Notes: a model not told the origin generated them from the letters alone. Counted from the first letter of the stretch, positions 4,545 to 61,669 are shown. The stretch is 64,000 nt of DNA from an uncultured Planctomycetia bacterium (GCA_964430735.1 CAYSFB010000005.1:46390-110389), one strand, 5' to 3'. Translations and numbers: made by a program.

Positions 4545-4577
4545 TACTTGCGGCCAGAGAGGCGAGACAAAGTGCGT

Positions 4578-33100: not shown

Positions 33101-36100
33101 TCCTCGAAGGAGGATATGACTGGTTCCGCCAGGTCACGAAGAAGTTTCCGAACGTGTTCACGCTGTTTCTGGCGTCGTTTACACCGGAAGAATTGACCCT
33201 GCGGGCCTCGAATCAGCAGATCATCGAAAAAGTGTGGCAGGATCCGCTGCAGCGCGCCGTCGCCTTCAACCTGGTCAACATGATGCGCCGTAATCAAAAG
33301 ACAGAGATGATCGACCTTCGGCGCGAGGAGACTCTAAAAGAACTCAGTCAGGCCGTCTCGGGATGGGAAGGCCATCCCACCCGAGCGTCCGACCCCGCCG
33401 GCGCCATGCGTAAACTCGGCCGCAAGGTATATTCAGCCGAGGCGGTCGCCAAGAATCCGGATCTCGCCGAAACGGAAGCCACGCTTCGCGCCACGGCCGG
33501 CATCATCGAGAGCCCCGAGTTCATCGAGGCCGTGAACCGTCTCCTCGGCCCCGACTATCTCAACCACACCTTCCGCATCGATGAGTCGAACGCCCCTCTG
33601 GCCCGCTCACTCGCTTATTACTTCCATATGCGGCTGGCCGGGGCCGGGCGTTCGGACACTTCCGTCAGAATCGCCATCCCGTCGGCCGAGCGCGACAGAA
33701 CCGCCAATTATTCCAAGGACGAGGACATGTTCAACCGGATGATCGAAGGCGTCATTCAGACGCTCCTCATGCAGGAGTACGTCGAAGGCGATCGCGCCGG
33801 CCGCGGGACGATCGTTCACAACGCCTTCGTTTACGGTGACGGCGGCGAGGACCATATGAAACTCATCGAAGCCACCGAGAAGCGCCACGCGAACACCATC
33901 GCCGACCAATACTTCGGGTACCTGCTTTCCGCGATGAACGCGGCCAACGGCGCGCGTCTGGCACAGGTCGAGATGGTCGACGTGCTCGACGAAGCGGGTA
34001 GTTCCAAAGGAATGGTGCGCAGTCTCGACAAGGTGCGCGCGCAAGGGGACTGGCACGCGACCGTTTATGTCTTCGTGTTTGATCCGGCGACGGGCAAGGT
34101 TTATGTGCAAACCCGCTCCAAGGCGAAGGATCTGAACCCCGGCAAGGAGGACGCGTCCGCGTCCGGGCACGTCGAAGCGGGTGAGCGCGACCGCCGGACG
34201 GCCGCGCACCGTGTGGCGCTCAACGAACTGGGCGTTCATATCTCCATTGAGAATTTCATCGCCGTCGGCAAGGAATCCGGATACCCGGTCGTCGAAGACC
34301 GTCCGAACGGTCCGGCCCTGCGCCAGTACCGCACCGTTTATGTGGCCGTTTTGCCGGAAGGCGAACAGGTCAGTCCGAACGCGTTGGAAGTCGACAGTCT
34401 CAAGCAGTCCGACGTCATAGATCAGCTCCGTCTGGCGGATTCAGGTTCCGCGGAAATCAGCGAAGGCCTCCGGCAGATTTACAAACTCCGCCGCGTCCGC
34501 AGAGCGTTGGTCCGCGTGCAGAACCTCCTTGAAAAGATCCGTCTGCGCAACCAGGACCATGCTCTGTCGCGGCAGGATCTCCTCTTCGCGATCCGGAACC
34601 GCATTTCGACCCGTCCGATCAGGAACGTGGTGCTGGTGAGTCCCGAAGCCGTGCCCGTGGTCAAGACGGGCGGTCTGGGCGACGTGGTGGGTGAGTATGC
34701 CCAGTCGCTTTCGCGCCTGGGAATCGATGTCGCCGTGATCCTGCCCAAATACAACCGCGGACCCGTCACGGACGCCCTGGACACCGGGATGTCCTTCCAG
34801 TTACAGCTTATGGGCCGCACGGTCACGATCAAGATTCTGAAGAAAAAAATCGGGTCGGCCACCTACTATCTGCTCGAAGACACAGACACTTCCGAAAATT
34901 CGTTCCTGAACGAAATTTATCCGAAGGACACGGACGCGGACCACACCCGCTCCTTCGCGCAGTCCCGGATCGTCTCCGAGGGCTCATTGATCGCGATCAA
35001 AAAACTGGTCGAAGCGAAGATGATGGCCCGTCCGAACATCATCCACGGCCACGATTGGGAGACCGGCTGGATGCACGCGTACCTCCAAACGAAGTACGCG
35101 CAGGACCCGATCCTCGGCAGCGCGGTTCACGTCGGCACGGACCATAACCCGCGTCAACAGGGCCCCGATTTTCCTGCCAGGCTATATGCCGAACTCGAGA
35201 TTTATAACGCCAACGGCGAAATCGACTGGACGCACGTGTTCGGGATGCAGCGTCCCGGAAACACGAACGTGATCAACGCCAAGCGCGCCCAGCTGCTTCA
35301 CGCCGGCGCGGTCAACGTCGTCTCGGCCGGCAACCGCAGGGAAGTGCTCGCGGGAACGCAGGCCCACGGCAATCTGGACCTTTACGCGGCCAAAGGAAAC
35401 CTGTTCCGGGGTATCCCGAACGGCATTTCCGCGGACCGTTGGCCGGTGCTTTCGCCGGCCGTCAAGATCCAGGCGGAGGACCGGTTGTTGAGCGAGTTGA
35501 ATCTGGCCCCTCGCGGACCCGACACGGTGATCATCGGTTCAGTCTCCCGGATTGACGACCAGAAAAACACGCAGGCCGTCGTCCGCTCGATCCGCCGTAT
35601 TCTCGAAGAGACGGATGGCGACATCCGGTTCATCTTTGCAGGCGACGGACATCCCTCCAATCAGTACGCGCAGGAAGCCAAGGCGATGATGGCCCAGCTT
35701 CAAGCCGATTACCCGCGGCAGGTGCGGATTATTCACAAGGCGGACCACGACCTTCAGAACAGGATTTTTGACGGTCTTCAGATCTTCTTGTACCCGTCCA
35801 ACCCCGCGATCGGCGAGCCGTTCGGCACGAAGGCCGCCGTCGCTCTCAGCAAGGGCGTGCCCGCGGTGCTCACGCGCGTCGGCGGCCTCGCAGACATCGG
35901 CACCGAACTGAATCCCGTGAACGGAACGGGCAACACGGTGTTCCTCAAGTCGACTTCGCCGGTCGAAGTTGAAGTCGAACTGCACGACGGGATCTGGACG
36001 CTGATGAATCTTTATCGCAACGAGTCCGACCAGCTGACGTCGATCCTCGACAATGCCAGAAACGTCCAGGTGGATTGGGCCGACTCGACCCGGCAGTATC

Positions 36101-38718: not shown

Positions 38719-41700
38719 ATGAACCGGAAGCTGAAGTGGATGGCATTGATGGTCGCGGTTGCCTTTATGGGCCAGGAGCTGGCTGTGGCTGCTCCGGTTC
38801 TGGCACCTTCCATGCCGGTCGCTGCTTCCAAGCCGGAGGTGGGTTTTGTTCTGCCGGAGTCGGTCGCGCTGATCGACGACGGATTCAAGGCGCCTGCGGC
38901 GGATGCGAAGACAATCTTTCTTATTCAAGACGCACACACCAATGAATCCGGTCAGATGAACGAGGCCAAGGCCCTCGCCGAGATCCTCCCATCAGAGAAT
39001 ATCAGGCACGTATTTACCGAAGGCGCCGACAACGACGCGTCCCTTTCGTTCCTCAAAGAATTTTTCCCCAAAGACGTGCTTCGGAAGACCTCGATCTCCT
39101 TTGTCCGCAAGGGGATCATGAAGGGCAGCGAATTCGCCAGCGTGAACGGGGATCATGAGTTCGCCCTGATCGGCGTCGAAGACGAAGAGCTCTACGATCA
39201 GGCGCTCGAGTCATTCGTCGATATTCTTAAACGCCGGGATAAAGCCGTGCAGTATCTCGACCGCGTCGGGCGCGCCGCTTCCACGCTCAAGGAATCGATT
39301 TACAGCGAGGAACTCAAGGCTCTGGATGCTCAGGAATCGGCGTACCGCGCCGGTGAATTGCCGCTCACGGATTATTTTGCTGCGCTGCATGCCCAAGCCA
39401 GGAAGACCGGCGTGTATCTTCCGCAGTATCCGCACCTTTCATTCTTGAACGAACTCAAAAAATCCGAGTCCAAGGTCGACTTCAATCAGGTTTCCAAAGA
39501 GCAGGAAGCGGCGCTGAAGTCGCTTCCCGAAGAAGACCAAAAAACGCTAGCCGCCGCTTCCAAAGAAAAGCATTCGCCCTTCCGTATGGGCGGCGGTGAA
39601 AAATCCACCGAGAAGGCCTTCTACGCGCTTCTCGAAGAAAAGCTGGCCGGCCGGTCCGCCGCATACCCGGCCCTGTCCCGATATTTCGGCTACCTCAAAC
39701 AAACCAAAAAACTCGACGCTCAATCCATCCTCAACGAACTCAAGGCTTTTGAGATGGACGTCTTCGGCCGCCTTGCCGTCACTCAGGACGAACAATTCCT
39801 GGTGGTGCTGTCGAAGAACCTCGTCTCGCTCGAGAATCTGCTCGAGATCAAGCTTTCTCCCGAAGAATTCAGCGCGTTCCGCCGCGATTCCGCCGTGTTC
39901 GACATCAAGGTGATCGGTGGATTTTTCAACAAAAAGATCATGGGCCTCGGCAAACATCACGACCAAGCTGTCCTGCTCGAAAAAGATTATGACGAAGCGG
40001 TGAAGACCGCCTCCGAGTTTTATGAGCTGACCTATCGGCGCGATGAGGCGTTCGTCCGGAACATGCTCACCCGCATGGATGCCGACCAGGCCGCCAAAGC
40101 CGTTCTCGTCACCGGCGGTTACCACACTCCGAGCCTGAAGCGCATGCTGAAGGATAAAGGCATTTCCTACGTTTCGATTATGCCGCAGATTCTGCACGAG
40201 ACCGACATGGCCCGTTACCAGAAGATCGTGACGAGCCAGTTGTTCGACGCCCAAAAAGAGACGCGTCTGGCCCAAGCGCGCTCCAAGGCCAACGCTTTTA
40301 TGCCCAAGGATCTTCGCAGCCGCGGCGTGGCTGATTTCATCACTGTTGCCGCCTCCAACCTCCCGAAGGACCAGCAGGAATCCGTCGTCACCGAAGCTCT
40401 CGCGGCCGCTCGACTGGCTGTGAGCAGTCCGGATCCGCTTCAGGGGACTTTGATGCGCATCGAACAGGGGATGCTGTCCAGTTCGTTCGGAGATGCCGCG
40501 CTCAATTTAAGAGCCAAAGACCGCGCGGGGCTGCGTGGAGTCTGGGATTTGCGTTGGCGCCGCCCTTATTCGAGCGTGGGAGCGGAACAGCATTTGAGTC
40601 AGCATCTTTTTCCGTCAATTCTGCGCGAGGCCGCTATGCCGCGTTTGACCACTCCGAAGACCGATGCGGAAGCCGACGATGAAAGGATCAAGTCCCTTGT
40701 CGCGCAGGCAAAGGCAGGGGATTCAAAGGCTTTGGATGATTTGTACCTGCTCCTCTATCCTTCGATCAAAAAAGCAATCGATATCAAGATTCAGGAAAGG
40801 ACCAGAGACGGAAAATTCTCATGGCTAAAAAACGAGCGGGGCGACATTTTGTCCATCGTTTATCTTCAAACATTGCCCGACGTCGTGCGGGCATTCAATC
40901 CGGCCACCCTCCGCAATTCTGGTCGTGGCGCGGAAAACTTCAAGCGCTATCTGATCCGATCGGTTTACAATCTGATCGTCAAGCTGGTAATACAGCGTCG
41001 AAACGTTTTTTTGAATGCGAATTTTGACGAACATCCGAGCCCGATTGCGGCTCCTCCGGCGATTCTGGAAGAGCTTGAACAAGCGTCTTTAGAAACCCGC
41101 GTTGTCAGTGATCTGGTCGACGACATTTTGCAGAGCGCAAACAGCGAACAGGCAAAAGAGGAGCTGATGGGGGTGCTGTCCGGAATTTTAAATTACGGTG
41201 ACAACGATTCTGTGATCTCTCACGAAACCGGCATCGCAGAGCCCAGAGTCGCCTTGATCAGACAGGAGATCGTCAGCCAGTATTCTGAATTTAATTTTAA
41301 AGCGAAAGGCAATATCCGGTGGCGGGTGTGTCTGGTGAATATTTATGATTTTCTTGCGATCAGAAAGATTTTAAAAAATAGTGACCCGCGGAAAATAAAA
41401 AATATCCTGTCCAAAAATCCCGCCCGGGCAGACATCGTTTATCGGGCATTGAGACTTCGGTACGGCGCTGACGGCACTCCCAAACGCCTTGAAGAAATAG
41501 TCAAGGAGACCCATGCCTCAAACGCGAGCGTTGTCTGGAGCCGCATCCAGGCGGGCGTCGCGGCGATCAAAGCCAATGATCCGGTGTTTTCCGGCGTGTA
41601 CTCTGACTTCGAATCTTCGGCAGAAAACGGTCCTTCGGCCGCCCGTTTGGCGGATATGAGCATAAGTGGAGAAGGTTGGTCCGAATTCGGTCACCTTGCC

Positions 41701-44700
41701 AAAGAAAGCAACCCGCAACCCGCAACTCCTGTCCAATATTCACCCGAAACTGGTCCCGTGATCGAAGGTGCCGTCGTCGGAAAAACCGCGTCCGAAGAAG
41801 GCGCCATTGCGCCCCAGGTGGCTCTGCCCAATCAAACCAATGCCGCGCGGTTGGCCACAAACATCAACCGCAGACAGTTTTTAATCGACGCGACCAAAGC
41901 GGCGGCAACCACCGTCGTGGCATCCCAGATCCTGCGGACGACTCCAGTTCAGGCAGAGGAGCCGAGCGAACTAGTACCCGGAAGCACGCTCAATCTCTTT
42001 GACGAATACGGGACCAAGGCCGGTGAGACGTGGGCGAGCAAGTTCGCCTTCACCGGCGGAGCGCTGGACGCATCGCAGACTCTGAAGTTCGTCGTTACGC
42101 CTGAAGACAGCCTCGAAGGATTCATGATCCGACTGACCAAACAGAAAGACGACGAGGATCCCTGGATCCTCACGTTCAAAAAAGTGAACGGGAAGTGGGG
42201 CGTGAGCACCAGCCCCAAACTCTCGGCGCCCAAGGCTGCCGAGCAGTTTGCCGACAAGGTCGCGGTTGATGCCGACGGAAACATTGTCGTCACGGTTCCG
42301 GTTGCGCTGATTCCCGCATCCGCCCGCTCGCCCAAAGAAATCCACATTCACGCCGGCAAGGTCATCAGCACCGGTCCCCAGGGCCGCGGCATTCAGATCA
42401 ACCTGAATAAGACCAACGGTCCCAATCTTCAATCTGCAGCGGTAGAAATATCCGAAAAATCCGGCGCCCGGCTCGCGACGCTCAAGGAGCTCGAAGCGCG
42501 TCCTTTGGACAAGTGGAATGCCGTGAATTTGACCGATTTTGTTCTAAGCGCCGCTTCCGTGAAGCGGGTTCAGGAAGGTGCCGATCTCAGCCGATACGAA
42601 ATCCGAGGCGCAGGCCGTACGTTGTCGGCGGAAGTCATGAACCGGTATCAGTCCGGGACCGTGTTTCAAATCGCCGTTTCCTGGCAGGATGACGCATCGA
42701 CGTCCAAAACTTTGTATGCGAACCCTTCGGATAATTACTCGCTGGACAGCCTCGCGGAGATTCTGATGGGCCGCGTCGAGGCCGAGCAGACCGCCCCGAA
42801 GTCGGCGGAGCAGACGACCCGAGCGATGCGGCTGGACGAACTCGATTCTGAACAGCTCGCGGATATTCTCAGGGAACTCGTTCGTACGGACAAGCTTGCC
42901 GAGTATCCCGTGCAGTCCAAATTCCTGCTCTATTCCGCGGCGCCTGGCACCGGCAAAGGAGCTCTCTGGGAGACCGCGTTTGATCCGGACAAGGGCGGAA
43001 GCTTCAGCGATATCACCGAAAAGGTCGTGTTGTTCCACACCCGGAAGATGCGTGCAGGAGAAGTTGACGGCGTGCATTACCATTTCCGCACCGTCGATCA
43101 GCTGCGCGACCTTGAGCAAAGAGGACTGATTCTCACGACGCTCATCAACGGACAGGTGCAGGGCCTTGCCATCAAGAGCTTTGAAGACGTTCGTCAGGAC
43201 GGAACTCCGGCTCAAGTACGCGGACTCGAAGGCATCTTCAGCGGCGACAAGCTGGCTATCCTTGAAGGCGGCATGGGCTGGTTCGACTTTTTGCGCAGCC
43301 GCCCTGAATACAACGGCGTTCCCGCATTCTTTTTAACACCGCTTCCGGAAAACGTGATTCAAATTCGCGAGAAAAATCTCCAGGTTATCAAACGCACATT
43401 CCCCACGGACCGGGAGCAGGCGCTCGCGCTCGAAATCATGATGCGTCTCTTCAGCCGGGACGGCGAATCAGACCTTTCGAATCCCGCCTACGTCGGTCAG
43501 CTGAACCGGATCAAGGAAGGGGTGACGCAGATCATCAAGGGCGGAGACTATGACGAAAGGTTCGAAAACATATTCGGATTTTCTGACGAAGATAAGGATA
43601 AGAATCTGAAGTCTTTGGTGGAACGGTTTTCGCGCGCCTACTTTTTGCGGGTCTTGAACGAAATACAGAATGATCCGCGCGGAGCCGCTGACGTCGAGGC
43701 TGCAATGGCGAGTGTGCTTGGATCCCGGTTGGCAACCGGTCCAAAGGGGCCGAGCTGGATCCGTCAGTATGCGCCGCATGTCGCGGACAGCCAAATCGTC
43801 GAAGTCACGATGGAGATGGCGTTGAGCGAGCCCATCATGAGCGCGCTTGAGACGCGCCTGCGCCAATCGGGTCTTGAGGAGGAAGCGATCGAGCATGAGC
43901 TGCGCAAGGCCGCCATGTCCACGTCCGTCGGAGGTATCGGTCCGCTGCTGGGTGAACGCGTGCCGGAACTTTCGAACCTCGGAGCAAATGTAACGGCAGT
44001 TTCGCTTCTTTATAATCAGGTCTGGGTTCAGAAACGCCGGCCCGACGGAACACTTTCGTCCGAAAAGGAGCAGGTTCATCCGGAACTTCGTAACGTCATG
44101 GAACCCGCCGGCGAAGTGACGATCGAGATGTACGACGGCACCAAAATCAGCGCGCGTGTGCTCAAGGCCCCCCGCGGAGCCTACCAGCAGGCCGACGTCT
44201 ACTTTATTGACGTGCCGTTCCTCGCTGACACGATCTGGGCGCGTTCGAATGTCGTTTATCCTGGGGCCAAAGACGTCAGCCGCGCGAATGCCGAGCTGGC
44301 GCGCTTCAATCAGAGCTGGATCCTGGGCCGCGGTACGCTCGCTCTCATGAAAATCCTGAAACGCCGTCCGGATCTCGTGATCATGAGCGAGGCGTCCTCG
44401 ATGTTCGCGCATCACCGTGTTTTTAGAGACAGCCATAGCGACGATCCGTTTTTTGACAACACCCGCTATGTTTTTAACGATCACACGCCGCTGGATTATG
44501 CGCATCCCAAATGGAGTTCCCAGGTGCTCCGGCTCCTGCGCGTCGACGAGCGTTTTTGGGGCGAGAATCTCCCGGTGTGGGACGCGGACGGCCGCGTGGA
44601 CGCGACGGCGCTCATGATCAACGCCTCGGACATCGTGTATGGCGTGGCCAAGAAGCACGCGGAGGTGATGCGCGGAATGGTCGGGTTGAGACGTTTGGCC

Positions 44701-47136
44701 GAAAAAATCCGTCATGTAACCAACGGTGTGAGCGTGGAATGGGCTGACCGCGAGTTTCGGGATCTGGAGCGGGTTCGCGCGATTCCTGACGAGGAGCTCA
44801 TCCAGATGAAGCGTGTCCGGAAAGCCGCCATGCTGCATTGGCTGGCCCGCAGGCAGGGAATGGATCCGGGCTGGGCCGGCCGTATGCTGGCCGAGAACCG
44901 CCCGGTCGGTCTTTGGACGCGCCGCATCGTCGAGTACAAGCGGCTCGGAGTGTTTGCGGATCTTCTGGAAAACACCGAATTGCGCGAGGAATTCATCCGC
45001 TCCGGGATCATTTTTATCTTCGGCGGAAGGACTCATCAGGACGACGATTACGGGATCCGGCAGTACAACCGCATCCAGGAATCGGTCAAGCGCGACCCGC
45101 GCCTCAAGGACCAGGTGATTTTTTTCGAAAATTACAACCGTTGGGAGGCCGTGAAGCTTTTCAGGGGTGTCGATTTTTCCGTGATGCTGGCGGATGACGG
45201 CCGCGAAGCGTCGGCGACCGGATTCCAAAAGGCTCAATTGTCCGGATCGCTCATCATCGCGAGCAACGACGGGGCGATTCCCGAGTCCGTCAAGTTCCTG
45301 GATCCGGCTCCGGGCCTTCCGATCCGGGGTGCCAACGGCTTCAACGTCCCTTACGTGAACGACCAGCCGACAGCCGGGGGTCTTATGGACGCCTTCGGAC
45401 GGTTCCGGCGGATTTACGATCAGCCGGACAAACTCGCCGCAATGATCCGCAACGCTTTGCGTCAGGCGGAATTCGTGAGCGTGCGCCGCACGGCAGAGGA
45501 CATGCTGCGGCTTTTTGACCAGGAAGTCCGCGTGCTCGATCACTACCGGATCGATACGAAGGAGGCGGATGCCCAGTCGGATGCGTTGTTCTCGGAGTCC
45601 GGTATCGATGCCGGGACGGCCCGGGCGCTTCTCAAGGAGCTGGAAGCCGACAAGTCGCGGTTCGTCTGGAAGTTCAAAGAAGATTATGTGAGCGAAAAGA
45701 CATTGGTCACCAGCGAGCCGGGTATTGCCGGATTCCTGCGGGGCTTGGACCGGATCCGGTCCATGGGGTCGGTCGGGGAGTGGAGTCTCAAATTCCATGC
45801 CGGGGCCGAAAACTACCGCGGCGACATTCTGAATTATCTGGACTACCACATCAGCAAAATGAGCGACATGGGAGTCCTCAAGGCCTACGTCCATGCGAAG
45901 CACGCTGAAGCCGAGGATGCGTCCGTCAACGACAAGATCCGCATCAGTCTCGAAGTCGCCGAAGTCATCGAGCACTGGATCCGGCGCCTGGAGCGGACGG
46001 CGGCGCAAGGCTCGAGGTTGGCGGCGGAGCGGCAGCCTTCAGCTTCCGTTCTGGACCAGGTGTCCGCAGACTTGGCCCGCCTGGCCGGTCTTGAGGGCTC
46101 GATCGACCGCGCGACGCTTGAAGCATTCATCGTGCGGCTCATGACGGCCAATGAGAGCCAAGAAGCCTCTTTCCCGCTGCTCATGGGCGATGGTCTTGTG
46201 CTGGTCGACGTCATTCGCTCGGAAGCTGGATATCGGATCCGGGTGAATGACCGGGAAGAAGATGTTCTGACCAACGAGGAATTTGCATCAGTCCGTGAGC
46301 GCAATGCGGCAAATGACCGTGAGCGTTCGGAATCGACCTCGCAGGGGCTGCTCGAAGTGGTTACGGCGACCCGCGCGGACATCGATGAGCTCAAGCAGCT
46401 CATGTCGGCATCCAAGGAGCGTATCCGGGTCCGCGTTCCGGTCCATCGGATTTTTGGAGCGATCCAAAATCCGAAGCAGGCCGACCGCGCCCTGTATCAG
46501 GCGCAATCGCTTCTGGCGATGATCGGCTGGGCATCGGAGCATGCGCAAAAGAACGGCCTTCAGGGACTCGACTTCCACTTCCCGCAGGAATGGCTGGAAC
46601 AGCTTCCGAAGGCCGCTTCAGAAATCCGCTCGCTGGTCGAGTCGGCGGAGTCCTCCGGCAAATACGGCAACCGCATCCACCTGGATCAGCCGAACCCAAA
46701 GGACTTCATCATCAACTGGATGGTGGGCGAATCGCCGGATGACATTGCGGAGTTCATTAACTTGTCCGGCAAGAAGGAATTCAACCTGGTCATTGCTGAG
46801 AACGGCCGGTCGGTCCATAGAGGTCTTCTGCCGTGGTTCCGCGGCGTGAACGTGCCGATGAAGGCGTTGTCGGATTACTCGGAGCGAGCGACCGCTCCCG
46901 ACGGCAACCTGGAGACAGTTCTGACGCAGGCCGACTCTGTCCGCGGACCGGAAGTCTTCGAATACATCCGGCGCGCCTTGAGCGGCACATTCGATCAGAC
47001 CTCCATCACCGAAGCATTCAAGGGCAACAACTGGCTCATCCTGGTGAATGCGCGCCTGGAACTCTTCGTCATCCCGATCGATCAGCTCGTGAATGCCGCA
47101 AGAATGATGGCCGATACGACGGATACGGCCGCATAA
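38719..47136 (+). CDS. Giant (2,805 aa) signal-anchored multidomain protein: conserved N-terminal module, ECF-sigma-like segment, internal Tat-like signal, guanylate-kinase-like domain and GT35 alpha-glucan-phosphorylase-like domain.
   Basis: An uninterrupted 8.4-kb frame with a good SD. The N-terminal MNRKLKWMALMVAVAFMGQELAVAAP is a signal anchor, and the homologous N-terminal module follows. Confidence 0.85.
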   Translation: MNRKLKWMALMVAVAFMGQELAVAAPVLAPSMPVAASKPEVGFVLPESVALIDDGFKAPAADAKTIFLIQDAHTNESGQMNEAKALAEILPSENIRHVFTEGADNDASLSFLKEFFPKDVLRKTSISFVRKGIMKGSEFASVNGDHEFALIGVEDEELYDQALESFVDILKRRDKAVQYLDRVGRAASTLKESIYSEELKALDAQESAYRAGELPLTDYFAALHAQARKTGVYLPQYPHLSFLNELKKSESKVDFNQVSKEQEAALKSLPEEDQKTLAAASKEKHSPFRMGGGEKSTEKAFYALLEEKLAGRSAAYPALSRYFGYLKQTKKLDAQSILNELKAFEMDVFGRLAVTQDEQFLVVLSKNLVSLENLLEIKLSPEEFSAFRRDSAVFDIKVIGGFFNKKIMGLGKHHDQAVLLEKDYDEAVKTASEFYELTYRRDEAFVRNMLTRMDADQAAKAVLVTGGYHTPSLKRMLKDKGISYVSIMPQILHETDMARYQKIVTSQLFDAQKETRLAQARSKANAFMPKDLRSRGVADFITVAASNLPKDQQESVVTEALAAARLAVSSPDPLQGTLMRIEQGMLSSSFGDAALNLRAKDRAGLRGVWDLRWRRPYSSVGAEQHLSQHLFPSILREAAMPRLTTPKTDAEADDERIKSLVAQAKAGDSKALDDLYLLLYPSIKKAIDIKIQERTRDGKFSWLKNERGDILSIVYLQTLPDVVRAFNPATLRNSGRGAENFKRYLIRSVYNLIVKLVIQRRNVFLNANFDEHPSPIAAPPAILEELEQASLETRVVSDLVDDILQSANSEQAKEELMGVLSGILNYGDNDSVISHETGIAEPRVALIRQEIVSQYSEFNFKAKGNIRWRVCLVNIYDFLAIRKILKNSDPRKIKNILSKNPARADIVYRALRLRYGADGTPKRLEEIVKETHASNASVVWSRIQAGVAAIKANDPVFSGVYSDFESSAENGPSAARLADMSISGEGWSEFGHLAKESNPQPATPVQYSPETGPVIEGAVVGKTASEEGAIAPQVALPNQTNAARLATNINRRQFLIDATKAAATTVVASQILRTTPVQAEEPSELVPGSTLNLFDEYGTKAGETWASKFAFTGGALDASQTLKFVVTPEDSLEGFMIRLTKQKDDEDPWILTFKKVNGKWGVSTSPKLSAPKAAEQFADKVAVDADGNIVVTVPVALIPASARSPKEIHIHAGKVISTGPQGRGIQINLNKTNGPNLQSAAVEISEKSGARLATLKELEARPLDKWNAVNLTDFVLSAASVKRVQEGADLSRYEIRGAGRTLSAEVMNRYQSGTVFQIAVSWQDDASTSKTLYANPSDNYSLDSLAEILMGRVEAEQTAPKSAEQTTRAMRLDELDSEQLADILRELVRTDKLAEYPVQSKFLLYSAAPGTGKGALWETAFDPDKGGSFSDITEKVVLFHTRKMRAGEVDGVHYHFRTVDQLRDLEQRGLILTTLINGQVQGLAIKSFEDVRQDGTPAQVRGLEGIFSGDKLAILEGGMGWFDFLRSRPEYNGVPAFFLTPLPENVIQIREKNLQVIKRTFPTDREQALALEIMMRLFSRDGESDLSNPAYVGQLNRIKEGVTQIIKGGDYDERFENIFGFSDEDKDKNLKSLVERFSRAYFLRVLNEIQNDPRGAADVEAAMASVLGSRLATGPKGPSWIRQYAPHVADSQIVEVTMEMALSEPIMSALETRLRQSGLEEEAIEHELRKAAMSTSVGGIGPLLGERVPELSNLGANVTAVSLLYNQVWVQKRRPDGTLSSEKEQVHPELRNVMEPAGEVTIEMYDGTKISARVLKAPRGAYQQADVYFIDVPFLADTIWARSNVVYPGAKDVSRANAELARFNQSWILGRGTLALMKILKRRPDLVIMSEASSMFAHHRVFRDSHSDDPFFDNTRYVFNDHTPLDYAHPKWSSQVLRLLRVDERFWGENLPVWDADGRVDATALMINASDIVYGVAKKHAEVMRGMVGLRRLAEKIRHVTNGVSVEWADREFRDLERVRAIPDEELIQMKRVRKAAMLHWLARRQGMDPGWAGRMLAENRPVGLWTRRIVEYKRLGVFADLLENTELREEFIRSGIIFIFGGRTHQDDDYGIRQYNRIQESVKRDPRLKDQVIFFENYNRWEAVKLFRGVDFSVMLADDGREASATGFQKAQLSGSLIIASNDGAIPESVKFLDPAPGLPIRGANGFNVPYVNDQPTAGGLMDAFGRFRRIYDQPDKLAAMIRNALRQAEFVSVRRTAEDMLRLFDQEVRVLDHYRIDTKEADAQSDALFSESGIDAGTARALLKELEADKSRFVWKFKEDYVSEKTLVTSEPGIAGFLRGLDRIRSMGSVGEWSLKFHAGAENYRGDILNYLDYHISKMSDMGVLKAYVHAKHAEAEDASVNDKIRISLEVAEVIEHWIRRLERTAAQGSRLAAERQPSASVLDQVSADLARLAGLEGSIDRATLEAFIVRLMTANESQEASFPLLMGDGLVLVDVIRSEAGYRIRVNDREEDVLTNEEFASVRERNAANDRERSESTSQGLLEVVTATRADIDELKQLMSASKERIRVRVPVHRIFGAIQNPKQADRALYQAQSLLAMIGWASEHAQKNGLQGLDFHFPQEWLEQLPKAASEIRSLVESAESSGKYGNRIHLDQPNPKDFIINWMVGESPDDIAEFINLSGKKEFNLVIAENGRSVHRGLLPWFRGVNVPMKALSDYSERATAPDGNLETVLTQADSVRGPEVFEYIRRALSGTFDQTSITEAFKGNNWLILVNARLELFVIPIDQLVNAARMMADTTDTAA
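40680..41580 (+). other. ECF-type sigma-70-like segment (region 2 and region 4 signatures) embedded inside the giant ORF.
   Basis: The region-2-like part is LVAQAKAGDSKALDDLYLLLYPSIKKAI...FKRYLIRSVYNLIVKLVIQRR, comparable to ..GD..AF..LY..Y......FS.WL..IARN...D..RRR. The region-4-like part is ARADIVYRALRLRYGADGTPKRLEEIVKETHASNASVVWSRIQAGVAAIK, comparable to R.V..LRY.EGLS..EIA..LG.S.GTVKSRL.RA...L. An AT-rich patch (about 41280-41420) lies between them. Confidence 0.35.
41840..41965 (+). other. Internal twin-arginine (Tat)-type signal-peptide-like element about 1,040 aa into the protein.
   Basis: NAARLATNINRRQFLIDATKAAATTVVASQILRTTPVQAEEP has RRQFL as the S/T-R-R-x-F-L core, a hydrophobic h-region and a VQA-E AxA site. 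The TTG codon of the ARLA leucine would start a canonical signal at M-A-T-N-I-N-R-R-Q-F-L. Confidence 0.4.
42920..43560 (+). other. Guanylate-kinase-like domain (copy C).
   Basis: FLLYSAAPGTGKGALWE is a P-loop. HTRKMRAGEVDGVHYHFRTVDQLRDLEQRGLIL is the GMP kinase T-x-R-x-x-R-x-G-E-V-D-G-x-x-Y-H-F box. Confidence 0.5.
43800..45550 (+). other. GT35-family alpha-glucan (glycogen) phosphorylase-like domain.
   Basis: STSVGGIGPLLGERVPELSNLGANVTAVSLLYNQ is comparable to phosphorylase YSGGLGVLAGD...LG.P.VGVGLLY..GYF. EASATGFQKAQLSGSLIIASNDGAIPE is comparable to the PLP-lysine signature E-A-S-G-T-[SG]-x-M-K-x-x-L-N-G-A-L-x-x-x-T-x-D-G, and the Lys is retained. Confidence 0.55.
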
Positions 47137-47148
47137 AAAGAACCCGGC

Positions 47149-50100
47149 ATGAGCGTCCTCAGGACCCGAACCCCCATCCGGATTCGCGCGATTGCGGCTT
47201 TGGCTGCGGCGGCCTTCCTGCTGCAGGACGTCGCGTTCGCCATGCCCGAGCTGGCGGCGCGCGCGGGAGTGCCGCACGTGCCCGCTTCGGCGGCGATGAT
47301 CGAAGACCGTTTTGACGCCGGACATTCCGGCGGCAAGACGGTTTTTTTGATCCAGGACGCTCACACCAACGCTTCAGGCCAGCGGCATATCGCCCGCACG
47401 CTCGAAGCGCTTCACAATCAGACCGGATTCACGCACGTTTTTCTCGAGGCGGGGTCGGGGGATGATTCCATCGGCTTTCTGCGTCCGCTGGCCGGATCGG
47501 CAGATCGCCGGAACGTGGCTGAGCCCTACCTTAACAAGGGCCTTTTGCAGGGGGCCGAGTACTTTGAGCTGGTCACCGACCGGCCCGTCAAGCTCTGGGG
47601 CGTCGAAGATCCGGCGTTGTACGCCCAAGCGCTCGCCGCCTATAGGACAGTTGCCCTCGGGCGTTCGGTGCACGAGGCGCGTATCGGCCGCCTGGATACG
47701 GCGGTGGAAGTGCTCAAACATAAGATTTACAATCCCGCGCTGCTCGAACTGGACCGGATCCTTTTGTCCGACGTGCGGGAGTCCAAGCCCTTCACCGAGC
47801 TTCTCGCGGAGCTGGATCCCTTCCTGAAGCGCGCCTCGCTCGGGTGGGGCGAATTTCCTGAGCTTGCGGCGGTGCACCGGGCGCTGGCGATGGAGCGGAA
47901 GATCGACTTTGACCTTGTCCGCCTCGAGGAAGCGGAGGCGATTCACCGTTTGCCGGAAGCCGACCGCGCCGCAATCGAAGCCGTGCGGTCATCGGCCGGA
48001 CGCATCGCCGGATCCAACCTTGCCGTCCAAGCCTCGCACGCGGCGCTTCTCAAGGAAGCGCTCGCCGCCGCGCCCGGCCCGGCCCGTTCCGTCCCCGCCG
48101 AGCTCCGGAAGTATTTTGAGTACATCGAAGCGACGCAGGCCATTCGGACCGAGCGTGCGGTTCGGGAGCAGGAGCGGCTTACGCAGGCGCTCATCAGCCG
48201 GCTGACGCGTACCCGTGAAGAAGCCGGTCTGGTGCGCGCGGCGTCCGCGCTGGAGGCGTTCCGCGGACTCGGGGCGCTCGAGCTCACTCCGGACCGTTAC
48301 AAGTCGGAATCTGCGAATCCTTATTTTGCGGACGTCGCACGGTTCGAGGGATTTTTAAACGGTCAATGGATGCGGCTGGGGACGGGGTATGAAAAAGTCG
48401 TTTTTTTGGATCCCGCCTTTGAAGACTGGATCGCCGAAGCGAAGCGCTTCTATGATCTGACGCTCGCCCGGGACCGGCAAATGATCCGTGAGGCGTTGTT
48501 GCGCATGGACGAAGCCGGCGAACGGAAGGCCGTCCTTGTGGCCGGCGGATACCACGCGCCCAACCTCAAGCGCCTCCTCCGTGAATCGGGCGTATCCTAC
48601 GTCTCCATCCTTCCTCAGATCACGCATCCGACCGACAAGGCGCGTTATGAGCGCCTGCTCCTGGCCCAAACGCCCGGCCGGCCTGCTGGCTCAGCCCGCG
48701 CCATGAGTCTCAAGCCCTCGCGCGAAGCGAATCCCGCTCTGCTGGAGCAAATCGCGCGCGACCTGGCCTCGCGGCCCGGCGCCAGTCCCGAAGCCCTGCG
48801 GGCCGTGTTGTCCGAGCTTTCCGGCGGCGCGCGGCTGGCCGCATCATCGCAAAGCGTCCGGACGGGAGTAGAGGCGTTTGCCGACTCGATCGTCGACAAG
48901 CTTCGGCGCGACCCGTTGTTTGATTTTGCGGACTTTAGCAGCGAGGCGCAGACGCTTTTCGGCAGCCGCACCGACAGGATTCCCGCGCTCGAGATACTCG
49001 CCCAAAGAATCAACCGCACACTGATGGAAGACCGTTCTCTCATGCCGTTCGAAAAAGCCCGGTTGTATCAGTTCCTTGCCGATCTCTCATTAAATGACCG
49101 GGAGCAGTCAGAGTCAGTGTTCGGCACGGACATTTTTTACGGCGCCTACAAGCGCATGATGGGAACGCGCCGCTATCTGATCGAGCGCAACCGGCAGCTC
49201 CTCGCCGCTTTTCGTTCAGTCATGCTCCCTGTTTTGGAAAAAGTGAAGCGTCCGTCCGGTCCCGTCTACTCGGGCAACAAAGTGACGGCGGAGGTTTCTG
49301 CCCGTTTCGACGCGCTGCACCATGGCGTCGGCAAGGATCTTTTTGTCTACGCGTCGGTTCCCGACGAAAAGTCGGTGCTTAACTTCACCGTCGATCCCGA
49401 CGCCGGCCCGGCCTTCAGGATCGTGGTCCGCCCCTCCGAACGGCGCGGGGTATCGGTCGCGAATTTTCGCTATCAGCATCCGGACCAAAAAGACGCCGCG
49501 CCTGATGTGACGCGTCTCGAGGCTGATGACGCAGATGGAATCAGGGAACTCAAGTCCGATCCTCAGTTCAATCACGTGATGGCCGCCCTGAGCGCTGCCG
49601 GCCTGACCTCCCATCGCGCCGGCGAAGAACAGGTTCTCAGCAGCATCAAGTCGATTTACGGCATGAGTCCCTGGGAAGGCATCGAGATCGAGATTCACAG
49701 CCGGCTCCCCGTGTCGAGCGCACTGGGCGGCGGCACAGGCATGACGTCGGCTCTGATCGCCGCGTTGCTCGAGTACACGGGACGCGGGAAAGCGGTCTCC
49801 AAGGCGGAACTTGCGCTTCTGGGTTCGTATGCGGAGATGCTGTTGGCGGTGGATGATCCTTCGAGCCCGATGGGAGGATGGCAGGATGCCTTGGGGGCGC
49901 TGCTAACATACCTCAATTGGATCACGATCGGTTCGGATCGGCCGTTTACCGAACTTCATGAACAAGCGATCTTCGAAGGAGAAGTCCAAATCCGCCGCGA
50001 GCAGCAACTGATGTCCAGCCTTCTTGCCCGCTCCGTGCCGATCCTTCTGCCTTCGGCCGAAGGGACTGGATCCCAGGATGTTTTGGAAGAACTTGTGAGC

Positions 50101-53100
50101 CTCCATTTGCGCGGCTCCCGACGGTCCCGGGAAGCTGCGGCCGCGGGCCGGGTCCGTATGGAACAAGCCTGGGATTTGATCAGCCGATATCGGTCGGGCG
50201 ACCTAACACTGGAATCTGCCACGGACGGACTGATCCGCCTCATGACCGAAGAGGCCGAAGCCTTCGGGTCGCTCGTCCTTGGTGTGAGACATGAAGGGTT
50301 TGACCGGCTTCTTTCTGAGCTGACTTCCGCACGCGACTTGAAGAATCCGGACGGTACCCCTCTTGTTTCCGGAGGCAAGATCGGAGGAGCCGGAAGCCGC
50401 GGTGTTGCGCTCGTGTTTTTGGCGGCGGGAAATGACCGGGAGTTGAGCGTGCGCCGCCGGCGTGTCCTTGATGCGGCGGAACGCGCCGGAATGAGCAGCT
50501 TCCCGCTGCGGGCCGGCGACGGTCTGCGGCTGAAGTCAGCGCCGGTCCGACGGACCCAAGGCGCCAGACTCACATCGGCCGTCTCGCTGCGCGGCCTTGC
50601 TCCGGAAGTGGAGCTGGAGGTGTTGAAGCACCATCGCGACGAACTCAAAAAGGAGCGCTTCGCTCCGGGAACCGGCAACTTCACCCGCGTGTACCTGTTC
50701 TCCGATATTCACGGGTCGATCGGGAAGATGGATGATTTTATTCTCAAGGCCTTGAAGGACGCGTTTCCGGAAGCGTTTGGAAGTATCGCGCGTTTGGATC
50801 CTTCCATATCGCTTCAGGAGCAGCTGGCGGAACCGGTGCGCCAGGTGGGCGGTTGGAATGTCATTCGGGAAAAAGTCGCCTTCTTAAACGGCGGCGATCT
50901 CATGGACCGCCAGGATATCAATAAGGGCGAGTCGGGGCTGGCCGTTTATGAGCGTACGATCCAGCTGCAGGAGCTCGGGCTTCAGGAATTCACGACCGGC
51001 AATCATGATCACCTGGTCATCATGCCCCTCATGGGACTTCATCTGCCGACATACGAGGGTTATCGCTTTTATTTGGACATGACCGAAGCCGGCAAGGCGG
51101 CCCAGCGGGCACTCGAGCACGAGATTTATCGTGACCCCGCCCGGCCTGATTCCAAGCTGAAGCTGAGGCCCGTCGAAGACGTGGTGCGTGAGCGGAATCG
51201 CGGGTTTGCGAGCGACCGCGACCGCACCGAATTCTGGAGCCAAAAATTCTCGGACTATTACACTGAACGGATCGACCCCGCGTCTCCGCTCGTACGGGAA
51301 TGGAAGCAGATCGGTTCAGAGGTGTTGGGCGATCCGGCCTCCGGCAGCGCGCCGCTCATGTCCAAAGACCAGATCAAGGGGTTGAGCGGCCTTCAGAAGG
51401 TTTTTTGGAACAAGTTCACAGGCAAGAACATGGAAGACGTCGACATCTACACCGGCATCCGGACGATCAAGGTCGGCGACCAGGAAGTCTGTTCCACGGG
51501 CCTTATGTCCGCGATGTGGTGGCGCGAGCTCCGGACCAACTTCCAGCAGCAGCTGGACAAGCCGCTGGATGCAAAAGACGCGATCCGCGATCTCTCGATC
51601 CGGGCTTCGTGGGAAAAGGCCATCCGCTACATGGACCGGATCCTGGAGGGTCTCGAAGCCGACCTCCGCAAGCGCCGCAGCGAGGGGCAATGGTGGGTCC
51701 GGGCGATCGAAGCGTTGTATAACCAAAATTATTACACGGCCGAGCAGGCCGCCTGGGACTGGGTCGTCCACCTCGGCTGGGGCCCGGCGTTGTTCGAAGA
51801 AATCAACCGCCTGATCCGCGCGGGAAAAATCCCCGGACCCGAGATCGACCGGTCCAACTTCCTGCTCAATTCCAAAATCCAGGAAATGAGCCGCAGGATG
51901 CAGGAAATGTTCGCGCTGTATTCGCGCAACCGGTATATGACGTTCCTCCACGCGACCCTCCCCATGGACCGGGCGACTGACAGCGCTCCCGGCGATTCCG
52001 CGCCCATCCTTCCGGGCCAGTTCCGGTTCAGGTACGACGGCGTGACCTATGTCGGCGCCGGGCACGAAGCGAGCGGCAGTCCGTCGGTGTGGGAGGGGAT
52101 GGACCGGCTCGAACGGGCGGTCCGCGAAGCCGACCCGGTTCATATGTCCGATGCGGCAACGGCCTTCAACGCGATTTATGACTGGTATTCGGACTTTAAG
52201 ACCCGCGCCAAGCCGCGGGATGTGCTGGAATTGGTTAACGATGACATCGCTTTCACGAACTTTTTCAACCTCAACGGAATTTACGGGTTTTTGGGGACGG
52301 GCCACAACCCGTTGCCGACCGGTTTTGCCAAATATGTGCGCGAAATGCTCCGACGCTTCGCCGGCGTTCTGACTCAGGCGTTCGGTCCGCGCTTCCGGGA
52401 CTACTGGCTCCAACTTGACGCCGGAGTATCCCTCAAGTTCGGCAACCAGGGGCTCATGATCGCGATTCATCCCGCTGACATTGCCGGCGGCCTGCGCATC
52501 TTCGGTTACACCAAGCCGGACGCGAAAGAATTGACCGAGAACCCCGCCATTTATTACGAAAAAACCTACAAGAACTACAAAGAGCAAAAAAAATCAGATG
52601 CCGAAACACCCGAGCCGAACCCCGCCTTTACGACCGAGCCGGTCGGACACGAGGACTTCCTGCTCGGCCACCTCGGCATCGTCGAGGATCGGATCCGCGT
52701 ACTCGAGAGCCGTCTCAGGTCCCAAGTCGAAGCCGACGGCCCCGGCGGCGCCCGTTTGGCAGAGAACCTCCCGGAATACAAGCGGACGATTTCCCGTCAG
52801 CTCACGGGTGCGATGGGCCAATTGTCCAAACTTGCGCAAGAGCTCGAGAACGTCAAAGCCGAGATCGCCCGCATGAGAGGGTACGAGCCGGATCCGGACG
52901 GACCTGAAGCTCCGGAGGAACCCGGGATGAACAGGGCGATCATCGATTACTTCCTGGGCGGCGATCTCGCGTCCCGGACCGACCGGTTGCAGGATTTTGC
53001 GGATCGGATCGAGTATGTGCGTGAACAGATCTCGGCCGCGAGTATGCCGCTTTTGCTGGACCATCCGAGCCGTGAGGACCTGCTCGGTGCTCTTGCCGAC

Positions 53101-59361: not shown

Positions 59362-59482
59362 CCCGGTTCGCCCATTCCTGATCCGGCCCTTCCCGACCGG
59401 TGTAAAAACCGGTGCTTGCCCGTGTTTGTTCCATGTGATAGACTTCTCGAATCACTTTTCTCACGTCCTGTTAAAAGTTGAT

Positions 59483-60781
59483 ATGAATAAATACTTTTTA
59501 CTTCCCATTCTCACTCTTTCCTTAATAGCAGGCGGATGCGCTTCCAAGTCATCCACCGGCGCGAACGCTTCACAGACAGTGACCGTTTGGCACTGGATGA
59601 GCGACCGCGAAGACGCCTTCCTCGAACTCGCCAAGCGTTACGAAACCCAGACCGGCGTTAAAGTGAAGTTCGACCTCTACGCTCCTTCCGAATCCTACTC
59701 GCAAAAAGTCAAAGCCGCAGCCCAGACCAACACGCTTCCCGATGTCTTCGGTGTGCTCGGCGAATCGCGCGATCTGGCCAGCTTCATCAAATCGGGCTTC
59801 GTCGCCGATCTTTCGGATTCGCTGAGTGTCGACGGCGGTTGGCGTAACCGCCTGTTCGAGAAGGCCTTTGAGGTCAACCAGTTCAAGGCCGGCAACGCGT
59901 ACGGCGTGACTCCCGGCGTGTACGGCATCCCGCTCGACATGACCACCATCCAATTTGTGTACAACAAGGATCTCTTTGCCAAGGCCGGGCTCGACCCCGA
60001 GCAGGCGCCGCGCACCTGGCAGGAATTCATGACCGCAGCCCGCGCGCTCCAGGAAGCCGGTATCCCGCCGCTCGTCGGCGGCTTCGGCGAGATCTGGATG
60101 CTCGACGCGCTCTCGTCCAACTGGGCGATGAACATCATGGGCGAGGAAAAGTTCTTCGACACCTACCGCGGCAAGGTCAAATACACCGACTCCGACTGGG
60201 TTCAAGTCCTCTCGCTCTTCAAGGAAATGGTCGACGAAGGGGCCATCGTCCCCGGCGCCGTCACCATGGTCAACAAGACCGCCGAGCAGACCTTCGCCAA
60301 CGGCCGCGCCGCGATGGCCTTCAACGGCTCCTGGTGCGTCAACGTCTATAAAGGAATGAACCCGACGCTCAATTACGGCGCGTTCCTGCCCCCGCAGGTC
60401 AGCGCCAGCCGTTCGATCAAGATCTGGGGCGGGGCGGGGTCGAGCTTCATGATCAACGCCCGCTCAACGCGCAAGGATCAGGCCGTCGCCTTCGTGAAGT
60501 GGCTTGCAGAAGCCGACCAACAGGCCTTCCTCTCCAACGCCACGAACAACCTGCCGGCCAACCGTCAGAGCCTCAAGGACCTTTCGCCGATCCTGGCCCA
60601 ATTTGCCGACGATATCGACAACACCACTCATCCCAACGTTTATCCGGTGCATGAAGATCACCGGGTTCTGGAGGCCTGGTCCAAGGGCATTCAGTCCATC
60701 TTGATCGGGGAAAAGACCCCCGAGCAAGTCGCCCAGGAGGTTCAAACGGCGAAGGAACGCGAGATGAGCCGGAAGCAATGA
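59483..60781 (+). CDS. ABC transporter extracellular solute-binding lipoprotein (family 1, CUT1, sugar-type). The ORF-track start at 59426 is probably too far upstream.
   Basis: MNKYFLLPILTLSLIAGGCASKSS is a lipoprotein signal with a LIAGGC lipobox. The binding-protein-like sequence follows. The stop overlaps the permease start (ATGA at 60778-60781). Confidence 0.65.
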   Translation: MNKYFLLPILTLSLIAGGCASKSSTGANASQTVTVWHWMSDREDAFLELAKRYETQTGVKVKFDLYAPSESYSQKVKAAAQTNTLPDVFGVLGESRDLASFIKSGFVADLSDSLSVDGGWRNRLFEKAFEVNQFKAGNAYGVTPGVYGIPLDMTTIQFVYNKDLFAKAGLDPEQAPRTWQEFMTAARALQEAGIPPLVGGFGEIWMLDALSSNWAMNIMGEEKFFDTYRGKVKYTDSDWVQVLSLFKEMVDEGAIVPGAVTMVNKTAEQTFANGRAAMAFNGSWCVNVYKGMNPTLNYGAFLPPQVSASRSIKIWGGAGSSFMINARSTRKDQAVAFVKWLAEADQQAFLSNATNNLPANRQSLKDLSPILAQFADDIDNTTHPNVYPVHEDHRVLEAWSKGIQSILIGEKTPEQVAQEVQTAKEREMSRKQ

Positions 60782-61665: not shown

Positions 61666-61669
61666 CGCC

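Follow-up and report, generated by a model that had tools for sequence, protein, structure and literature searches.

The window analyzed here, a stretch of 64,000 nucleotides recorded under an uncultured Planctomycetia bacterium (GCA_964430735.1 CAYSFB010000005.1:46390-110389), carries three very long open reading frames (ORFs) on the same strand, designated G1, G2 and G3 (Table 1). G1 and G2 are separated by 235 bp, G2 and G3 by 12 bp, and upstream of G1 lie ORF A (1,488 aa), a tetratricopeptide repeat (TPR) protein and an STT3/Dpy19-like membrane protein. Our subject is a domain of G2 that resembles the alpha-glucan phosphorylases of family GT35. It was flagged in an earlier note at 43800-45550 (aa 1694-2278 of G2), an interval covering the GT35 core. 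The G2 chain can be read as a signal-like helix, a leader of ~540 aa, five or six cargo cassettes split by the motif G[AS]R[LM][AS], and a C-terminal tail. We consider it likely that the domain is a complete alpha-1,4-glucan phosphorylase of a short GT35 clade, dependent on pyridoxal phosphate (PLP) and forming one cassette of an Omnitrophota leader-cargo protein.

The earlier note had proposed a GT35-like domain on the basis of motifs quoted from the translation. Both motifs are present in G2 (VGGIGPLLGE, aa 1737-1746; EASATGFQK, aa 2163-2171), and the assignment was confirmed by profile and structure searches. Pfam PF00343 matched aa 2025-2186 with 45.8 bits (gathering score 27; E=3.5e-12). 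The NCBIfam model TIGR02094 matched aa 1736-2190 over profile positions 17-516 of 600 (101.2 bits, E=6e-29); the score is under the curated cut-off of 191.7 bits, indicating that the GT35 core is related to this subfamily and outside it. A family profile matched 48 solved GT35 sequences at E<=1e-3, and aligned with rabbit muscle glycogen phosphorylase (GP) and with the GP of Segatella copri (PDB 9l6i, residues 128-623, E=1.1e-27). An AlphaFold model of aa 1674-2431 had a mean predicted local distance difference test (pLDDT) value of 90.3 and a predicted template modeling score (pTM) of 0.87. When this model was compared with the PDB by Foldseek, all 50 best matches were glycogen, maltodextrin or starch phosphorylases (best E=1.1e-23, template modeling (TM) score 0.60), and the GT-B fold of glycogen phosphorylase with its two Rossmann domains was recovered. 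A further check suggested in the earlier note, against the DUF3417 profile, came out empty: Pfam gave no DUF3417 match in G2 at E<=1, and the alignment with the S. copri enzyme begins only at residue 128 of the latter.

Table 1. Features of the window. Positions count from the first nucleotide of the 64,000-nucleotide stretch; aa, residue numbers of the respective ORF.
Feature	Position	Residues	Strand	Remarks
ORF G1	7561-38484		+	10,307 aa
ORF G2	38719-47136		+	2,805-aa modular ORF: leader, cargo cassettes, C-terminal tail
ORF G3	47149-59361		+	4,070 aa
GT35 cassette (core and C-terminal extension), G2	43735-46008	aa 1673-2430	+	Corresponds to the whole stand-alone protein P0001
GT35 (alpha-glucan phosphorylase) catalytic core	43783-45534	aa 1689-2272	+	hmmsearch with family profile; Pfam, NCBIfam, PDB profile search, Foldseek
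Gly-rich loop VGGIGPLLGE	43927-43956		+	Equivalent of GGLGRL of classical GP; aligned to GGLGML of 9l6i; G65, G66, G68 invariant
FNDHTPLDYAHP, equivalent of NHT sugar-binding motif	44473-44508		+	Aligned to HTP of 9l6i; N, D, H, T, P invariant
VTNGVSVEW	44716-44742		+	Pairs with TNGITPRRW (Asn484, Trp491) in rabbit GP alignment
TRRIVEYKR, phosphate site	44917-44943		+	Pairs with VKRIHEYKR: Lys568 to Arg, Arg569, Tyr573, Lys574; R395, R396, Y400, K401, R402 invariant
EASATGFQK	45205-45231		+	Pairs with EASGTGNMK; K2171 (45229-45231), predicted PLP Schiff-base lysine
C-terminal extension, ~155 aa	45535-46008		+	Mostly helical; F.WKY...G.VGEWSL motif; modelled pLDDT ~73-95
Junction motif GSRLA, upstream	43720-43734	aa 1668-1672	+	16 residues before core
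Junction motif GSRLA, closing cassette	46009-46023	aa 2431-2435	+	Directly after extension
Signal-like N-terminus (MNRKLKWMALMVAVAFMGQELAVA, then AP) and ~540-aa leader, G2	38719-40404		+	G1/G2/G3 mutual blastp; leader model pLDDT 79.6
Leader, G1	7561-~9880		+	
Leader, G3	47149-48825		+	
Junction AARLA with Tat-like signal (NRRQFLIDATKAAATTVVASQILRTTPVQA), G2	41842-41955	aa 1042-1079	+	Signal starts four residues after junction
[GA][AS]RLA sites, ORF A to G1	3780-3794, 9877-9909, 18427-18441, 28252-28266, 31828-31842, 33949-33963, 36145-36159, 37450-37464			
[GA][AS]RLA sites, G2	40405-40419, 41638-41652, 41842-41856, 42463-42477, 43720-43734, 46009-46023			
[GA][AS]RLA sites, G3	48826-48840, 52747-52761, 54283-54297, 56617-56631, 57277-57291, 58168-58182			
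Conserved C-terminal tail FVIPIDQLVNAARMMADTTDTAA-stop	47065-47133		+	End of G2
Further tails	4446-4490 (A), 59293-59358 (G3)			G1 (~38440-38481) retains only the -AA end
G1 cassette, Nudix/IPP-isomerase-like and GlgA-like GT5/GT1	33964-36144 (GlgA core 34624-36117)	aa 8802-9528	+	Between GARLA and AARLA
Further cargo, G1	31861-32346, 33961-34476, 36454-36894			Two Nudix/IPP-isomerase-like domains, guanylate kinase
Further cargo, G2	42922-43203			Degenerate guanylate-kinase-like domain
Cargo, G3	49633-49911, 55180-56595			Mevalonate-kinase-like GHMP domain; Glu/Leu/Phe/Val dehydrogenase (GDH)
TPR protein	4548-5360			One transmembrane segment
STT3/Dpy19-like GT-C membrane protein	5357-7291			~10 transmembrane segments
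CUT1-type ABC importer	59426-62515			Directly 3' of G3; MalE/UgpB-like binding protein and two permeases

Conservation of the catalytic residues was read from alignments of 20 and 66 members of the GT35 clade. Invariant across the 66 members are the motifs G-G-I-G-P-L, N-D-H-T-P, T-N-G...W, R-R...Y-K-R, G-G-R and E-A-.-T-G-F-.-K, and also ENY. We take FNDHTPLDYAHP to correspond to the site of His377 in the rabbit enzyme. The earlier note had stated that the PLP lysine is retained and had suggested an alignment around it and around the glycine-rich phosphate loop. Both sites are retained: K2171 aligns with K680 of rabbit GP and with K609 of S. copri GP and is invariant in 66/66 family members, and GGIGPL aligns with GGLGML. 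The note had named beforehand what would overturn its reading, namely the lack of a GT35 match or the loss of the lysine or the glycine-rich site; a match was found and neither site is lost. K609 of S. copri GP bears PLP in the solved structure (PMC12912991).

Since all PLP- and phosphate-site residues are intact, reversible phosphorolysis would be expected, and the GT35 cassette is probably active. The opposite case, a pseudoenzyme or glucan-binding module in which the GT35 fold was kept for carbohydrate binding or for scaffolding in prey adhesion, is in our judgement very unlikely. It would suit the proposal that giant Omnitrophota proteins are adhesins or cell-wall-targeting proteins, as well as the divergence of the clade (about 17% identity to solved GPs, scores below the NCBIfam cut-off). 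However, all catalytic and PLP-binding residue classes are kept and are invariant in the 66 relatives, cassettes in giant proteins included, whereas loss of the lysine or of phosphate-site residues would be anticipated in a pseudoenzyme.

Comparison with characterized phosphorylases places the G2 core as a compact version of the family. With rabbit muscle GP and E. coli MalP/GlgP it has in common the GT-B fold and the catalytic set (K680, K574, R569, N484, W491, E672, S674, T676). In contrast to these classical GT35 enzymes, it is ~250 residues shorter, has no regulatory N-terminus or AMP/Ser14 site, and carries Arg for K568, Ala for G675 and Val for H571. The best solved match is the clade-2 'alpha-glucan family' GP of S. 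copri (9l6i/20yr; TIGR02094 type), with a profile E value of 1e-27, a fold E value of 1e-23 and a TM score of ~0.6. The two proteins share the GG.G loop, HTP, TNGV, RR..YKR and EAS.T..K, with K609 aligned to K2171, yet are only ~17% identical. Relative to the S. copri enzyme, the G2 core begins only at residue ~128 and has no counterpart of the region before; it also lacks ~55 residues of internal insertions as well as the C-terminal beta-sheet domain, and it has a different, helical extension at its C-terminus.

A search of 5.8 billion proteins returned 267 relatives of the GT35 domain. Nearly all of the best 120 of these 267 are stand-alone proteins, 550-600 aa in length, encoded in metagenome-assembled genomes (MAGs) of Elusimicrobiota and Omnitrophota. 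Identity of the stand-alone homologues is 40-51% across 96% of the domain (E down to 6e-182), with the bulk at 40-44%, and those that are named bear the label glycogen, starch or alpha-glucan phosphorylase. Short stand-alone phosphorylases of these phyla (P0013, P0030, P0058) have the invariant motifs in common with the G2 core, including EASATGF[MQ]K; they are separate genes, whereas the G2 unit is embedded between two junction motifs. The closest relative, P0001 (769 aa, 51% identity), comes from an Omnitrophota MAG (GCA_043823025.1). A signal peptide is missing from P0001 and from the Elusimicrobiota homologues. P0002 (828 aa), the other of the two closest relatives, has its own N-terminal signal peptide directly before the GT35 module.

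The N-terminal half of the G2 domain (aa 1736-1988; 43924-44682) also matches the GT-B family PF08323 at 29.4 bits. The threshold of this 'starch synthase catalytic domain' model is passed by the N-terminal half in relatives P0004-P0119 as well. Because the clade passes it, Pfam-based counts of GT5 'starch synthases' in Omnitrophota giant proteins may include phosphorylases.

The borders of the domain point to a self-contained unit. The 758 residues between the two GSRLA motifs that enclose it correspond to the entire P0001. The C-terminal extension following the core is specific to an Omnitrophota subclade and was found in P0001, P0002, P0130-P0136 and the upstream ORF of a further locus (L033:1-9441, + strand, contig CAZVNB010000011.1). 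In this ORF a GT35 cassette of 768 aa, 47% identical to that of G2, stands between two GARLA motifs and is preceded by a GlgA cassette; the remaining cassettes of the ORF are mostly unrelated to those of G2. Bracketing of the GT35 cassette by the motif on both sides was thus seen in three cases (G2, L033 and P0131). In P0130, the core is preceded by GARLA at a distance of 17 aa, with no motif close downstream. Among 1.84 billion cluster representatives, the cassette of GT35 core plus extension was embedded in at least 13 further proteins, 1,690-7,625 aa long. Ten of them possess the leader, which is followed in several by the GT35 cassette as first cargo. On these sequence comparisons, the GT35 domain is to be regarded as one autonomous cassette of a modular leader-cargo protein and not as a loose domain.

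GARLA is the commonest pentapeptide of the giant ORFs of the window, with 12 copies against 0.11 expected from shuffles. For the pattern [GA][AS]RLA, 21 sites were counted across A, G1, G2 and G3 (0.41 expected from shuffles). For comparison we took 167,597 aa of sequence from other genomes, namely 78 ORFs that bear the leader. GARLA was again the top pentamer (147 copies), and GAR[LM][AS] was found 236 times against 1.55 expected, an enrichment of about 150-fold. The arginine of the motif is never swapped for lysine, whereas the flanking residues are unconserved. The first motif lies at median residue 575, just past the leader, and the median distance from motif to motif, i.e. the cassette length, is 247 residues. 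The motif lies at the borders of autonomous units: both ends of the GT35 cassette, the end of the leader, the Idi-like Nudix domains of G1, which start a few residues after GARLA, and the cassettes of the L033 ORF, where the GlgA, GT35 and phosphoribosyl pyrophosphate (PRPP) synthetase domains each fill one inter-motif segment. Since such a strict motif repeats at the ends of whole enzymes, it reads most simply as a candidate processing or recognition site between cassettes.

Codon choice varies at each position of the motif, which argues for selection on the peptide. An origin as a DNA-level repeat or recombination scar was rejected for the same reason. An assembly artefact, in which the giant ORF was mis-assembled or separate genes were fused by sequencing errors, is extremely unlikely. 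In its favour, the sequence is metagenome-assembled, and the cassettes match stand-alone genes elsewhere. Against this, the identical 2,805-aa product of G2 is recorded on three contigs, including the Logan assembly of SRR14271373 (85.8 kb), which makes a one-off error unlikely. Moreover, the layout of leader, junctions, cargo and tail was seen in 78 loci from many independent MAGs, and the junctions are in frame and conserved as peptide rather than as DNA.

A further copy of the motif closes the chain. Of 26 complete ORFs with this layout (loci L008-L080 and those of the window), about 20, including A, G2 and G3, end in a tail of the form ...P...[GA]AR[LM]A-x(4-8)-[AS]A-stop. The last junction-like motif lies 6-10 residues from the C-terminus, which is nearly always -AA or -SA. 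This tail could be a secretion, processing or degradation signal. That the internal junctions are relics of C-terminal tails was not supported, the flanks of the internal sites being unconserved.

Some junctions are followed by what resembles a twin-arginine translocation (Tat) signal. Such signals lie 2-21 residues after the junction in G2 (aa 1050-1079) and in the leader ORFs of three other loci (L043, aa ~1684; L051, aa ~2485; L034, aa ~1647). They consist of RR-x-F-L and a mildly hydrophobic stretch, in G2 also with an A-x-A site. These four post-junction sites are among about 12 in total, although such positions hold only 5.7% of the sequence. The idea of a general signal peptide behind every junction was rejected: strongly hydrophobic segments made up 5% of post-junction segments versus 7% of random ones.

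The first ~510-570 residues are common to G1, G2 and G3, as shown by mutual blastp. The shared region opens with a signal-like segment (...F-x-x-Q-[DE]-x-x-x-A), in which a basic n-region precedes an h-region of 12-14 residues and an AxA-like site is present; the leader proper comes next. Its invariant elements are QDAHTN.S.Q, Glu101, GVE and GGYH, of which QDAH and GGYH follow beta-strands in the structural model. We found 195 leader relatives in GTDB species genomes, several per genome and nearly all in Omnitrophota MAGs. The family most often matched by leaders is PF04187 (ChaN), in 9 of 62 cases and at sub-threshold scores only (best E=0.009); single sub-threshold Pfam matches were to TraB and DUF5682. 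Foldseek placed ChaN (2g5g) at rank 19 with E=1, and a sequence profile search of the leader against the PDB returned only coiled-coil noise. The known members of the Tiki/ChaN superfamily are extracytoplasmic. The leader may be a processing domain.

The earlier note had also placed a glucan synthase (GT5) in the adjacent giant protein, and this proved correct. Residues 9022-9519 of G1 match TIGR02095 (glgA) from end to end (positions 2-476 of 477, 184 bits), Pfam identifies GT5 (108 bits) and GT1 in the same cassette, and the KTGGL, HGHDW and GEPFG motifs are intact. The synthase and phosphorylase cassettes thus travel together: in the window they occupy neighbouring ORFs, and in the L033 ORF the GlgA-like, GT35 and PRPP synthetase cassettes stand in a row between GARLA motifs. 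We hold it to be quite likely that the GT35 cassette phosphorolyzes alpha-1,4-glucan to glucose-1-phosphate, or elongates it in the reverse direction, in concert with the GlgA-like cassette encoded in G1. The remaining cargo likewise consists of housekeeping-type enzymes that are complete or nearly so. Profile searches detected no C39, S8 or SecA-like domains in the giant ORFs.

The clues to where the enzyme would act point both ways. The earlier note had described the giant ORFs as signal-anchored megaproteins. The signal part of this description stands for all three ORFs, each of which has a signal-peptide-like start; G2 and G3 are otherwise without a strongly hydrophobic stretch. In G1, some seven more hydrophobic segments precede the enzyme cassettes, whose placement relative to the membrane therefore depends on the helix count. 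The partner cassettes depend on ATP, ADP-glucose or NAD(P)H.

We regard export as plausible, though short of probable. The N-terminal signal would direct the precursor to or across the membrane, and the enzyme would act outside the cytoplasm of the producer, on the cell surface or else inside a host or prey cell. As an exported effector or surface enzyme, the phosphorylase would mobilize foreign glycogen to glucose-1-phosphate for uptake. This reading is consistent with the signal-like N-terminus of G2 and the absence of a later transmembrane segment, with the signal peptide of the stand-alone P0002, and with the fact that phosphorolysis needs only phosphate and glucan. An importer of the ATP-binding cassette (ABC) class, of sugar or glycerol-3-phosphate type, lies directly downstream. 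Omnitrophota have been inferred to be host-dependent or predatory (PMC10066038), a largely extracellular location is predicted for their giant proteins (West-Roberts 2023), and Chlamydia provides a precedent (PMC4829429). However, loading with PLP would have to follow Sec export, the ATP-dependent neighbour cassettes would be workable only inside another cell, and the internal Tat-like signals would be functionless. Furthermore, no delivery apparatus is encoded within the window, and neither the ABC importer nor the other neighbours recur beside leader genes elsewhere.

The alternative, which we advance only tentatively, is a polyprotein cut at G[AS]R[LM][AS] and released in the producer's own cytoplasm. 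GT35 and GlgA would then carry out ordinary glycogen turnover, and only the leader and the cassettes bearing Tat or Sec signals of their own would leave the cytoplasm. The substrates of the partners are cytoplasmic (GlgA-like, guanylate kinase, mevalonate-kinase-like, GDH and the PRPP synthetase of L033), P0001 and the Elusimicrobiota homologues lack a signal peptide, and the count of hydrophobic segments would put the enzyme-rich C-terminal end of G1 on the cytoplasmic side. The Tat-like signals 2-21 aa past a junction in G2, L043, L051 and L034 are sensible only if cassettes are freed before export, a hint of processing in the cytoplasm. On the other hand, in G2 and G3 the signal-like N-terminus is not followed by any transmembrane segment, P0002 carries a signal peptide directly before its GT35 module, the Tiki/ChaN superfamily that the leader weakly resembles is extracytoplasmic, and no cytoplasmic protease was identified. 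A putative host- or prey-directed effector role, as in Chlamydia, would reconcile both sets of location clues.

It is conceivable, without our calling it probable, that the cassette works independently after being freed at the junctions by site-specific proteolysis, possibly by the leader as protease. More generally, the leader-type large proteins of this Omnitrophota clade would be true bacterial polyproteins, a proposal we make with reserve: a leader, possibly Tiki/ChaN-like, and G-A-R-[LM]-[AS] sites, at which enzymes (GT35, GlgA, PRPP synthetase, guanylate kinase, Idi-like Nudix and GDH) would be cut free and some exported by their own Tat signals. MARTX toxins, with their cysteine protease domain, and viral polyproteins are likewise long precursors that hold several complete enzymes with short conserved sites between them. 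The motif and the leader of the present proteins, for which cleavage is only predicted, are unrelated to those systems.

Several observations weigh against this interpretation of an active phosphorylase released from a longer chain. The stand-alone relatives score 96-132 bits on TIGR02094, i.e. the whole clade lies below the cut-off; for this reason, the domain is assigned by its sequence to a distinct short (~570 aa) GT35 branch of Elusimicrobiota and Omnitrophota, and we know of no characterized member of this clade. The replacements of Gly675 by Ala and of Lys568 by Arg are both family-wide, the latter a conservative one in the basic cluster of the phosphate site. Cleavage at GARLA is something we infer purely, and the link of the leader to a protease-type fold is weak, with nothing significant among the matches. 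More distant leader-GT35 proteins lack GARLA, and a substitute junction motif was looked for in these and not found. Post-junction segments are not generally enriched in signal peptides, only the small Tat-like subset standing out. Finally, the location signals conflict, with the N-terminal signal and P0002 on one side and the ATP-dependent partners and internal Tat-like signals on the other.

The window is almost certainly from Omnitrophota, judging by the leader, since its relatives are nearly all in MAGs of this phylum. Omnitrophota-type MAGs are the source of the closest GT35 homologue as well as of the leader homologues. Many GTDB entries that contain the leader of Omnitrophota type bear the title 'uncultured Planctomycetia bacterium', a few others 'Eisenbacteria' or 'Auribacterota' (e.g. 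L004, L011, L013, L014, L016-L020); these titles are probably loose submitter labels and not a true taxonomic spread.

The STT3/Dpy19-like protein gave a weak match to an archaeosortase-associated oligosaccharyltransferase model. The importer following G3, of sugar or glycerol-3-phosphate type, agrees with a published remark that carbohydrate importers adjoin giant genes. At 80 other loci, no homologues of ORF A or of the TPR, STT3-like and ABC importer proteins lay within 10 kb of leader genes, and a set of conserved neighbour genes around leader genes was rejected. Within G2, the stretch LVAQAKAGDSKALDDLYLLLYPSIKKAI at aa ~640-730 (~40630-40900) gave no Pfam or NCBIfam match at E<=1. The stretch may resemble region 2 of extracytoplasmic function (ECF) sigma factors, which Pfam and NCBIfam did not confirm.

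Giant Omnitrophota proteins have been described as 'Archaeovorins' (bioRxiv 10.1101/2023.11.21.568195) and as 'multi-enzyme metabolic clusters' (bioRxiv 10.64898/2026.06.07.730766), with GT5 and glycolytic enzymes predicted to be extracellular. G1-G3 resemble them in their almost certain Omnitrophota origin, in the great length of the chain, in the presence of a signal peptide or transmembrane helices, in the series of GT5, GT1, NUDIX, kinase and sugar-metabolism domains, and in a carbohydrate importer nearby. They differ in size: with length thresholds of >=10,000 aa (2026 preprint) and >30,000 aa (2023), G1 (10,307 aa) passes the lower one, and G2 and G3 are far below. Cleavage of the giant proteins was suspected and the cleavage points were stated to be unknown (West-Roberts et al. 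2023, bioRxiv 10.1101/2023.11.21.568195), and doubt about the predicted extracellular location of their enzymes has already been published (West-Roberts 2023; 2026 preprint). Thus the concept of cytoplasmic-type sugar enzymes in such proteins is not new. The main texts of the 2023 and 2026 preprints contain no GT35 or glycogen phosphorylase, leader, GARLA junction or tail, one supplement has no PF00343 entry, and we found no literature linking 'GARLA' with Omnitrophota. GT35 as a giant-protein cargo therefore appears to be unreported.

Chlamydia trachomatis secretes the glycogen enzymes GlgA, GlgP, GlgX and MalQ (PMC4829429, PMC3722199). As is proposed for the window, a host-dependent bacterium has in this case given export signals to a glycogen synthase and a phosphorylase that are normally cytoplasmic. 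The Chlamydia enzymes, however, are separate proteins with type 3 secretion signals, and their secretion was shown experimentally, whereas those of the window are cassettes of megaproteins with a Sec-like signal, for which export is predicted.

In conclusion, the phosphorylase annotation is solid but incremental, adding GT35 to the cargo list of the multi-enzyme megaproteins of Omnitrophota. The larger value lies in the junction architecture around the domain, which makes the question of whether and where giant proteins are cut answerable by metaproteomics. If leader-type proteins are indeed polyproteins, the junction motifs would provide the first concrete cleavage-site candidates for the giant proteins of Omnitrophota, and would explain the presence of 'cytoplasmic' enzymes behind a signal peptide.

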